A DNA stretch of 64,000 bases from Escherichia coli (lineage in GTDB: Bacteria; Pseudomonadota; Gammaproteobacteria; Enterobacterales; Enterobacteriaceae). Of the stretch, positions 14,417-16,233 are shown one piece after another. The notes under the pieces were generated by a model. The model made no database searches. It saw only the letters and a list, made by a program, of their open reading frames with translations, and had not been told where the DNA came from. The stretch lies in the NCBI RefSeq assembly GCF_051903065.1, contig NZ_CP178438.1, one strand, 5' to 3'. The position numbers and the translations under genes are program-made. Each line of letters starts with the position of its first letter. The stretch's first letter is position 1.

Positions 14417-15124
14417 ATGAATACCCAACTTAAATACGGGAGAACCTGGCATTATCCTTTCTCCCCCGGCACCACCAGCGATGACCGCATTAACGCCGAT
14501 TACTGGCAGGATTTACAGGCCATCACGCAATTGGTGCACACAGAAAAACTCGACGGCGAAAATAACTGCCTTAACCGCTACGGCGTGTTTGCCCGTTCCC
14601 ATGCTGCGCCTACGCAGTCGGCATGGACTTATAAAATTCGCCAGCGTTGGCAACTGCTGAAAAACGATCTCGGCGATCTGGAACTGTTTGGTGAAAATCT
14701 CTACGCCGTTCATTCCATTGAATACCGCGCACTGGAACAGGACTTTTACCTGTTTGCCGTTCGCTGCCAGGATATGTGGCTGAGCTGGGAAGAGGTGCAG
14801 TTTTACGCCGCTCTGTTTGATTTCCCCTTCGTTCCCGAAATCTCCGGTCCGCAGCCGGGGAATGATGAAAAAAGCTGGCAACGTGATTTTCTGGCACTGA
14901 CCAATGCGCGCGGCGCGTTCGATCCCTGGGATACACAAACCGGGCAACCCTGTACGCTGGAAGGCATTGTCAGCCGGAATCGTGATGCGTTTTCCGTCGC
15001 TGACTTTTCGCATAACGTCTTCAAGTATGTGCGCAAAAATCATGTCAAAACCACCGTGCACTGGAAACGACACTGGCAACGGGCGCGGATGGCCCATGAG
15101 TTCGCTTATGGAGAACAGTCATGA
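14417..15124 (+). CDS. Minimal ATP-dependent RNA/polynucleotide ligase (nucleotidyltransferase domain only)
   Basis: 235 aa; covalent nucleotidyltransferase motifs readable in the translation: I TEKLDGEN (KxDGxN), [31 protein letters not shown]. Confidence 0.75.
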
Positions 15125-16233
15125 TTTGGCAGCTTACCGACGATAAACGCTGGTCGACACTACGCCAGCGTTTCAGTTGGGTTGAGGAGATGCATCACAC
15201 GCCACAAGACCCTGAGCATCATGGTGAAGGCGACGTCGGCCTGCATACCGAAATGGTGCTGAACGCCCTCGTTACTCTGCCAGAATTCCAGCAACTCCCC
15301 GCTCAACAGCAGGAAGTTTTATGGGCGGCGGCGTTATTGCATGATGTTGAAAAGCGCAGCACTACCGTGCAGGAAAACGGACGTATTCAGTCGCCGGGCC
15401 ATGCTCGTCGGGGCGAACTGACGGCCCGGCTGATTTTGTGGCGCGATATCCCAACGCCGTTCATGCTGCGCGAGCAAATCGTTGCGCTGGTGCGTCTGCA
15501 TGGGTTACCGCTATGGTTACTGGAACGTCCGGAACCGGAGCGTTTGCTGCTCACGGCTGCAATGCGCATCGACACGGGTCTGCTCGCTTTGCTTGCTCGT
15601 GCCGATCTGCTTGGTCGCCAAAGCCCGGATCGGCAATCAATGCTGGAACGCATCGATCTGTTCGAGCTGTTTTGCCAGGAGCAACAGTGTTGGGGAAAAG
15701 TGCGCTCGTTCGTGTCTGATTCCGCACGCTGGCATTACCTGACCCATGAGCAAAGTTCTCCTGATTTTGTTCCCTGGGAGGCTGAACCTTTTGAGGTCAT
15801 TTTGCTGTGTGGCTTACCGGGTATGGGCAAAGATCGCTATATCAATGAACAGTGCCAGGGAATGGACGTTATCAGCCTTGATGATATGCGGCGGCGAATC
15901 AATGCCAATCCGGACGACAAAACCGCCACCGGGCGTATTGTGCAACAGGCAAAAGAAGAGGCACGCGTTTTTTTACGCCAGAAAAAGCCGTTCATCTGGA
16001 ATGCAACGAACATTACCCGCCAGCTGCGTAGCCAGCTCATCAGCCTGTTTACGGCTTACGGCGCACGAGTAAAAATCGTTTATCTTGAAGTGCCATGGGC
16101 GCAATGGAAGCAGCAAAATGCCAGACGCGAGTATGCAGTTCCTGAAGCGGTCGTGATGCGGATGGCCTCAAGGCTGGAAGTTCCTCAACCTGATGAAGCA
16201 CATAGCGTGGAGTATCGGGTGATTGAAAGGTAA
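15121..16233 (+). CDS. HD-domain phosphoesterase fused to P-loop polynucleotide kinase (HD-Pnk-like end-healing enzyme)
   Basis: 370 aa; N-terminal H...HD motif (GLHTEMV...AALLHDVEK), C-terminal P-loop [13 protein letters not shown]; start overlaps ligase stop (ATGA). Confidence 0.75.

Follow-up and report, generated by a model that had tools for sequence, protein, structure and literature searches.

The HD-Pnk of Runella slithyformis is an end-healing enzyme with two activities, a 2',3'-phosphoesterase in its N-terminal HD domain and a 5'-OH polynucleotide kinase in its C-terminal domain. Its open reading frame (ORF) lies just downstream of a ligase ORF and overlaps it, beside a Tpt1/MTase-HIT cassette, and the partner ligase self-adenylylates, yet it sealed none of the tested substrates (PMC6097658). 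Kinase activity was demonstrated for DR_B0098 of Deinococcus radiodurans (Blasius et al. 2007, PMC1997131). Here we describe a homologue of these enzymes encoded in a 64,000-nucleotide stretch of the Escherichia coli chromosome (assembly GCF_051903065.1, contig NZ_CP178438.1; hereafter the window). The gene lies at positions 15121-16233 of the + strand and codes for a protein of 370 amino acids (aa) with a P-loop that reads GKD, where polynucleotide kinases normally have serine or threonine after the lysine. The Runella kinase reportedly uses Mg2+ and any nucleoside triphosphate (NTP), and the HD domain of this family is reported to use transition metals (Munir and Shuman 2017); the D. radiodurans HD-Pnk was reportedly characterised by Schmier and Shuman in 2018.

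We found that the aspartate of this P-loop, Asp238, covaries across the family with a second residue, Asn294, at the Walker-B position. The coupling of these two sites is the new point beyond the known HD-Pnk family. We found no description of it in the accessible literature, and literature searches for GKD-type Walker A motifs gave nothing relevant. The best reading of the sequence data, which we consider likely, is that the E. coli protein is an HD-Pnk with a relocated carboxylate and a functional GKD motif.

The GKD P-loop and the HD-Pnk family

Family counts are based on 142 full-length representatives taken from a 50%-identity library, which are 35-55% identical to the query. CthPnk stands for the kinase domain of Clostridium thermocellum Pnkp. 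The gene and the residues of interest are positioned as follows:

15121-16233, + strand: HD-Pnk-family gene, 370 aa, ATG start (ORF list, Pfam AAA_33)
15340-15345, + strand: His74-Asp75, HD motif of the phosphoesterase domain (His in 140/142 and Asp in 141/142 representatives)
15808-15840, + strand: Walker A motif C230-G-L-P-G-M-G-K237-D238-R-Y240 (ORF translation, codon check, CthPnk alignment)
15832-15834, + strand: Asp238 (GAT), the K+1 residue (codon check)
15880-15891, + strand: Asp254 and Arg257 (SLD-DMR), which correspond in CthPnk to Asp38 (general base) and Arg41 (binding of the acceptor phosphate)
16000-16002, + strand: Asn294 (AAT), C-terminal end of strand 291-294 (F-I-W-N), Walker-B position (alignment, model, codons)
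16117-16128, + strand: Asn333...Arg336 (RNxxR lid segment), in the motif region that holds the lid arginines of CthPnk

The GKD P-loop of this ORF is confirmed. Its codons are Gly231 (15811-15813), Gly234 (15820-15822), Gly236 (15826-15828), Lys237 (15829-15831, AAA) and Asp238 (15832-15834), and a degenerate DNA pattern for G-x2-G-M-G-K-D had a single match in the window, at 15811-15834 on the + strand, with no match in 100 shuffles. The loop stands at the start of a Pfam AAA_33 match that is full-length (aa 226-355, E-value 3.5e-32). In the AlphaFold (AF2) model of the 370-aa protein (predicted local distance difference test, pLDDT, 96.7; predicted template modelling score, pTM, 0.94) it connects strand 225-230 with helix 237-244, and Asp238 is positioned in the first turn of this helix. 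HMMER pairs GLPGMGKD with 15-GSSGSGKST-23 of CthPnk, which places Asp238 at Ser22, the essential residue and sole protein ligand of Mg2+ in that enzyme (PMC3902929, whose residue numbering we follow for CthPnk). The canonical Walker A motif GxxxxGK[S/T] is therefore not matched, as Asp238 occupies the Ser/Thr position. The original prediction, which had an aspartate replacing the Mg2+-binding Ser/Thr within the P-loop, was right in both respects: the usual state is Ser22 of CthPnk and Ser16 of T4 Pnk, and the AAA_33 match, the strand-helix position in the model and the CthPnk alignment all put GKD in the P-loop. Chance, a sequencing error or a pseudogene were considered and ruled out by the intact ORF, the 998 near-identical E. 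coli copies and the conservation of the motif across phyla.

By sequence, the protein is an uncharacterised member of the known HD-Pnk end-healing family. The HD phosphoesterase (approximately aa 1-210) precedes the P-loop polynucleotide-kinase domain (approximately aa 222-370), in the order and size usual for the family. Weak HDIG and CCA-enzyme HD matches were found at aa 13-98, together with a partial NCBIfam match to the bacterial Pnkp kinase model; the window protein scores below the Pfam HD threshold, and PF01966 is precomputed for many of its homologues. The candidate HD metal ligands H34, H42, H74-D75, H94, H127 and D162 are conserved in at least 97% of the 142 homologues. These HD matches and the near-invariant His/Asp ligands bear out the earlier label "HD-Pnk-like". 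A word-indexed protein search returned 2083 proteins of the same two-domain family at E<=1e-5, and an exhaustive search of representatives returned 557 at E<=1e-30. From the catalytic residues, both 2',3'-phosphoesterase and 5'-OH kinase activities would be expected for the E. coli protein.

Among solved structures, the best Foldseek matches were CthPnk, mammalian PNKP, T4 Pnk and a Mucorales RNA kinase; no solved structure of an HD-Pnk is known. CthPnk (PDB 4gp6, 4gp7, 4mde) and T4 Pnk are the best solved sequence and fold matches of the kinase domain, and their P-loop lysine, general-base aspartate, acceptor arginine and lid arginine align with those of the E. coli protein. CthPnk differs at the two sites, with Ser22 for Asp238 and Asp78 for Asn294. 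In place of an HD domain it has a metallophosphoesterase as its phosphatase partner (in T4 a DxDxT domain), and the domain order is different.

To the Runella and Deinococcus enzymes the E. coli protein is similar in layout, with an HD domain followed by a P-loop kinase in about 370 aa. The homology to the characterised family was assessed through Runella zeae. No entry for R. slithyformis was obtained in the genome-contig scan, in the protein search seeded with R. zeae HD-Pnk or in the cluster look-up, and R. zeae served as its proxy. R. zeae was found by scanning genome contigs with Tpt1 residues 5-176 rebuilt from PDB 7kw8, with a best match of 64%. We take the organism of the 7kw8 Tpt1 to be R. 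slithyformis. The R. zeae cluster (locus L003) consists of four genes, MTase-HIT (9092-9955), Tpt1 (9986-10537) and, after a 155-nt spacer, the ligase (10693-11409) and HD-Pnk (11387-12493), which is the arrangement published for R. slithyformis. A 371-aa ORF (L003, 8011-9126) lies upstream of the cluster and overlaps the MTase-HIT start. The E. coli and R. zeae HD-Pnk proteins are 49% identical over their full length, and the ligases 58%. The E. coli gene shares with Runella the upstream ligase gene that overlaps the HD-Pnk start codon. It also shares with HD-Pnk operons the ATP-dependent-ligase-like character of this neighbour, with a KxDG motif and a 4-nt overlap. The Tpt1 and MTase-HIT genes that adjoin the Runella pair are absent from the E. 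coli locus. DR_B0098 is located on megaplasmid MP1 in a ligase-PARG-HD-Pnk operon; the E. coli locus has no PARG gene. The best local match of the E. coli protein to DR_B0098 has about 30% identity over 403 aligned positions, and DR_B0098 carries the canonical GKS and Asp pair in contrast to GKD and Asn of E. coli.

Coupling of residues 238 and 294

The close homologues found in the word-indexed search (53-96% identical) come from Escherichia, Salmonella, Citrobacter, Serratia, Providencia and Xenorhabdus, and also from Cytophagales. All of those with an intact P-loop have GKD, except for one GKN; two 252-aa fragments among them lack the P-loop, and in some the first P-loop glycine is an alanine. 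The R. zeae protein has GKD, as do 99/99 of its nearest relatives, and the characterised R. slithyformis enzyme is very likely of the GKD type, judging from these sequences. Position 238 holds Asp in 111 of the 142 representatives; the others have Ser (21), Asn (5), Thr (3) or Glu (2). GKD was found in Gammaproteobacteria, Alphaproteobacteria, Bacteroidota, Cyanobacteriota and Actinomycetota, GKS in Deinococcus, and GKN in plasmid copies of Pseudomonas and Variovorax. Judged on these alignments, GKD is the standard, majority form of Walker A in the HD-Pnk family. The orthologue alignment did not reveal a variable position outside the P-loop, which would have spoken against the original prediction.

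The plasmid-borne HD-Pnk proteins of Pseudomonas aeruginosa (locus L083, 2899-4041) and Variovorax (locus L084, 2947-4107) combine GKN with a second Asn and have a carboxylate at neither site. In P. aeruginosa the plasmid HD-Pnk and ligase genes are flanked by two IS21 copies.

At the second site, HMMER pairs FIWN294ATN with TVVD78ATN of CthPnk, and Asn294 corresponds to Asp78. The strand-end Asp of the canonical Walker B motif (hhhhD) is thus replaced with Asn294. The essential Asp85 of T4 Pnk was considered as a further Walker-B counterpart and set aside as evidence, with the SDTN/DATN register unconfirmed. The two residues combine in the representatives as follows (238/294):

Asp/Asn: 108/142
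Ser/Asp: 15/142
Thr/Asp: 3/142
Asn/Asn: 5/142
Ser/Asn: 4/142
Asp/Ser: 2/142
Asp/Asp: 0/142
Asn/Asp: 0/142

The 5 further sequences each have a single odd combination. Fisher's exact test for 238 against 294 gave p = 1.4e-18 (142 representatives, uncorrected for phylogeny), while the next-best column tracking 238 in the whole protein reached only p ~2e-4, which leaves 294 as its sole strong partner. When 370 sequences were aligned to the family hidden Markov model (HMM), we counted 329 with Asp/Asn and 0 with Asp/Asp.

The two states interchange repeatedly. On a neighbour-joining tree of the representatives, built with columns 238 and 294 masked, the Ser/Asp sequences are scattered and fall into more than one clade. 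Fitch parsimony required 24 changes at 238, 22 at 294 and 31 for the combined state. The 18 sequences with Ser/Thr-Asp have a nearest neighbour of their own type in 5 cases, of the Asp/Asn type in 11 and of the Ser/Asn type in 2. A reading of GKD as an oddity of this one protein is not supported: the motif interchanges repeatedly with GKS/GKT in the family, and it is accompanied by a compensating Asp to Asn change at Walker B that the original prediction did not mention.

The codons seen at 238 (AGC for Ser in 3 of 4 cases, AAC for Asn and GAY for Asp) allow the change from Ser through Asn to Asp by single-nucleotide steps, and likewise from Asp to Asn at 294. The distribution would agree with an early loss of the carboxylate at Walker B and a later gain of one in Walker A, as the Ser/Asn and Asn/Asn combinations are seen and Asp/Asp and Asn/Asp are absent.

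This pattern bears on the possibility that Asp238 has a role unrelated to metal, such as forming a salt bridge to the basic residue that follows it or touching the HD domain, with its link to 294 being a phylogenetic accident. The GKDR of E. coli does place Arg239 beside Asp238, and the covariation test lacks a formal tree correction. However, the K+2 residue varies among R, H, T, S, F, Y, K, N and A and offers no fixed partner, no column other than 294 tracks 238, and the Ser/Asp forms are dispersed among Asp/Asn neighbours. Moreover, the same pair occurs in PhnN, which belongs to an unrelated family and has no HD domain. We consider such a role very improbable.

PhnN of E. coli K-12 (locus L091, 7526-8083, - strand), for which RefSeq gives the product ribose 1,5-bisphosphate phosphokinase, has the Walker A motif GPSGSGKD and the strand DVLVN-GS. 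Compared with solved guanylate kinases, its Asp matches the serine of GKS and its Asn the acidic residue that comes first in L(D/E)ID. GKD is present in 118/120 PhnN proteins and the Asn is also present in 102 of those 118, in a sample of close relatives, mostly Enterobacteriaceae, and with Walker B assigned only by sequence alignment. A literature search for a discussion of the PhnN P-loop gave nothing relevant. The guanylate-kinase-like PhnN resembles HD-Pnk in combining GKD with a strand-end Asn; it differs in belonging to another P-loop kinase family, acting on a small-molecule substrate and lacking an HD domain. By analogy, the PhnN pattern would make GKD less exotic and supports the idea of compensation. 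The wider claim is that HD-Pnk, and independently PhnN, underwent a natural swap of Walker-A Ser/Thr plus Walker-B Asp for Asp plus Asn, and that the HD-Pnk family crossed between the two states many times, through the Ser/Asn and Asn/Asn intermediates that are seen, and never holds two carboxylates. We regard this claim as evenly balanced between right and wrong.

The interchange also bears on altered cofactor use, an idea of the original prediction, in which Asp238 would shift the preference from Mg2+ to another metal, such as Mn2+ or Co2+, or change the phosphoryl donor, with GKD and GKS being functional subtypes. A carboxylate differs from a hydroxyl as a ligand, the HD domain of the family reportedly uses transition metals, and the Asp/Asn state is strongly kept in large clades. 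Against this, GKD and GKS/T alternate among close relatives that share an operon type, and no other residue changes along with them. The ligase-first operon is found alike in Asp/Asn members (E. coli, R. zeae, Chondrinema), in the Ser/Asp member DR_B0098 and in Asn/Asn members. Since the two forms interchange repeatedly without accompanying changes, equivalence fits better than a switch in specificity. In addition, both the GKD and the GKS class keep the nucleobase and lid residues, and the GKD-bearing PhnN is by annotation an ordinary kinase. The reported use of Mg2+ and any NTP by the Runella enzyme, probably of the GKD type, argues against an exotic donor. We therefore find altered cofactor use unlikely.

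Retained catalytic residues and a possible mechanism

A survey of 3136 P-loop sites treats the K+1 Ser/Thr and the Walker-B Asp as a hydrogen-bonded pair beside Mg2+ that is strictly conserved, the K+1 residue being metal ligand number 4 (bioRxiv 10.1101/2022.06.23.497301). The exceptions listed there at K+1 are Asn (torsinA and DnaC, both with very low ATPase activity) and Gly (adenylate-type nucleoside monophosphate (NMP) kinases), with Asp unlisted, and those at Walker B are Glu and the case of MglA, whose Asp sits on a different strand after relocation (bioRxiv 10.1101/2022.06.23.497301). Like HD-Pnk, torsinA, DnaC, the NMP kinases and MglA are natural departures from the K+1-Walker-B pair, and MglA shows that the Walker-B carboxylate can relocate. 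They differ in that none of them has Asp at K+1, whereas in HD-Pnk the carboxylate enters Walker A and both sites switch together repeatedly.

The rest of the kinase site is retained. HMMER pairs SLD254DMR257 with SSD38FCR41 of CthPnk, where Asp38 is the general base and Arg41 binds the acceptor phosphate (PMC3902929, PMC2831316). In the 142 representatives K237 is conserved in 141, D254 in 139, R257 in 140, T296 in 131, R303 in 141, N333 in 132 and R336 in 136. The P-loop lysine, general-base aspartate and lid arginine of a canonical kinase site are thus all present. Because K237, D254, R257, R336 and the others are kept, an active kinase would be expected. The earlier suggestion of a catalytically atypical module stands as far as the two exchanged textbook residues are concerned. 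It does not extend to the remaining catalytic residues, which are kept, nor to GKD as an exception, as it is the family majority (111/142).

An inactive kinase module would only bind nucleotide or nucleic acid, and the protein would act only as an HD phosphoesterase or would scaffold the ligase. Both replaced residues, the K+1 Ser/Thr and the Walker-B Asp, are described as essential and strictly conserved in canonical enzymes, the K+1 Asn exceptions torsinA and DnaC are very weak ATPases, and the Runella partner ligase self-adenylylates and ligated no tested substrate (PMC6097658). This is countered by the 92-99% conservation of Lys237, Asp254, Arg257, Arg336 and the acceptor-site residues T296 and R303 across homologues of 35-55% identity, and by the coupling of 238 and 294, which implies that the site is under selection. 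A measured kinase activity also gave the family its name, and PhnN offers a precedent. We judge an inactive module quite improbable, less probable than altered cofactor use and slightly more probable than a role of Asp238 unrelated to metal.

Residues 238 and 294 are the partners of the P-loop pair and show an exclusive pattern of Asp/Asn versus Ser-or-Thr/Asp, and for this reason we favour a move of the single carboxylate out of Walker B into Walker A. Asp238 would supply the acidic metal-directed group and probably contacts Mg2+, directly or through water. The neutral Asn294 at the Walker-B position may keep the hydrogen bond to Asp238, and one carboxylate would be kept next to Mg2+-NTP. With the remaining machinery as in CthPnk and T4 Pnk, the γ-phosphate of the NTP would be moved to the 5'-OH end of a polynucleotide. 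The HD-Pnk would be co-translated with the ATP-dependent RNA-ligase-family protein.

Several points weigh against carboxylate relocation. Ten of the 142 representatives lack a carboxylate at both sites (Asn/Asn, Ser/Asn and Ser/Ser), and a carboxylate is therefore not strictly required. The covariation p-values were computed without a formal phylogenetic model, and the tree of sequences with 35-50% identity is noisy, which makes the number and order of the switches approximate. The pairing of Asp238 with Asn294 is a probable contact, placed by homology. The GKD state of the assayed R. slithyformis enzyme is known here only through its congener R. zeae, and the literature found offers no assay or ligand-bound structure of any GKD member.

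The E. coli locus and the meaning of the GKD form

The HD-Pnk gene is found in the following surroundings in the window:

12612-14159, + strand: emrB (window ORF list)
14161-16276: accessory segment with the ligase and HD-Pnk genes, 2,116 bp (genome comparison)
14417-15124, + strand: RNA-ligase-family gene, 235 aa, upstream partner of HD-Pnk (Pfam RNA_ligase PF09414, E-value 6.5e-28)
14546-14548, + strand: Lys44 codon of ligase motif I K44-L-D-G, the nucleotidyl-transferase KxDG (codon check)
16282-16797, - strand: luxS (window ORF list)
16947-18503, - strand: gshA (window ORF list)

The interval between emrB and luxS holds two co-oriented ORFs, the ligase followed by HD-Pnk, and 4 nt (ATGA) are shared between the end of the first and the start of the second. 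The 2,116-bp segment stands in place of the 57-bp emrB-luxS spacer of other E. coli. It is carried by 998/5426 complete E. coli genomes and is chromosomal in every carrier. Its borders are clean, with no flanking repeats or insertion sequence (IS) elements at 14161-16276, and its GC (guanine plus cytosine) content equals that of the surroundings. Terminator-like sites with a hairpin and a T-run were found at 14167-14188, after emrB, and at 16245-16260, between the stops of HD-Pnk and luxS; no convincing match to a sigma-70 promoter was found upstream of the ligase gene. In the bovine E. coli strains XJ34 and XJ6-3 the segment is split by an IS200C element, and the match is in two pieces and about 700 bp longer.

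A ligase gene also precedes HD-Pnk in Runella zeae, Chondrinema, D. radiodurans, the P. aeruginosa plasmid, Variovorax and Bosea. The 54-58% identity of the E. coli HD-Pnk to Cytophagales (Bacteroidota) proteins is about the same closeness as to those of Providencia or Xenorhabdus. This Cytophagales-level identity and the 58% identity of the ligase to that of R. zeae suggest that the pair was transferred between phyla.

No PADLOC defence-system model matched the ligase or the HD-Pnk protein, and the PHROG matches of the two proteins were only to generic polynucleotide kinase and RNA ligase families. With no PADLOC hit and only generic PHROG matches, a defence-system reading of the gene pair was set aside. 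Of the two PHROG families matched by the ligase (14417-15124), one carries an RNA ligase annotation and the other has no known function. A search for its relatives among solved structures gave none, with only spurious hemocyanin matches.

The RefSeq product labels of the E. coli kinase gene are "AAA family ATPase" or "ATP-binding protein". For annotation, our results mean that the gene that roughly one in five E. coli genomes carries under these labels is, by sequence, an HD-Pnk paired with a ligase, and that its GKD loop is no sign of a degenerate or inactive P-loop. The GKD result by itself leaves the substrate and the biological role of the ligase/HD-Pnk pair unrevealed. The pair of K+1 Ser/Thr and Walker-B Asp is treated as invariant in P-loop NTPases, and mechanistic proposals rest on it. 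The HD-Pnk family provides matched natural variants with which the roles of metal ligation, charge and proton relay could be separated. If both configurations are fully active, the family would be a natural test of what the Ser/Thr-Asp pair contributes, be it a metal ligand, charge balance or a proton relay.

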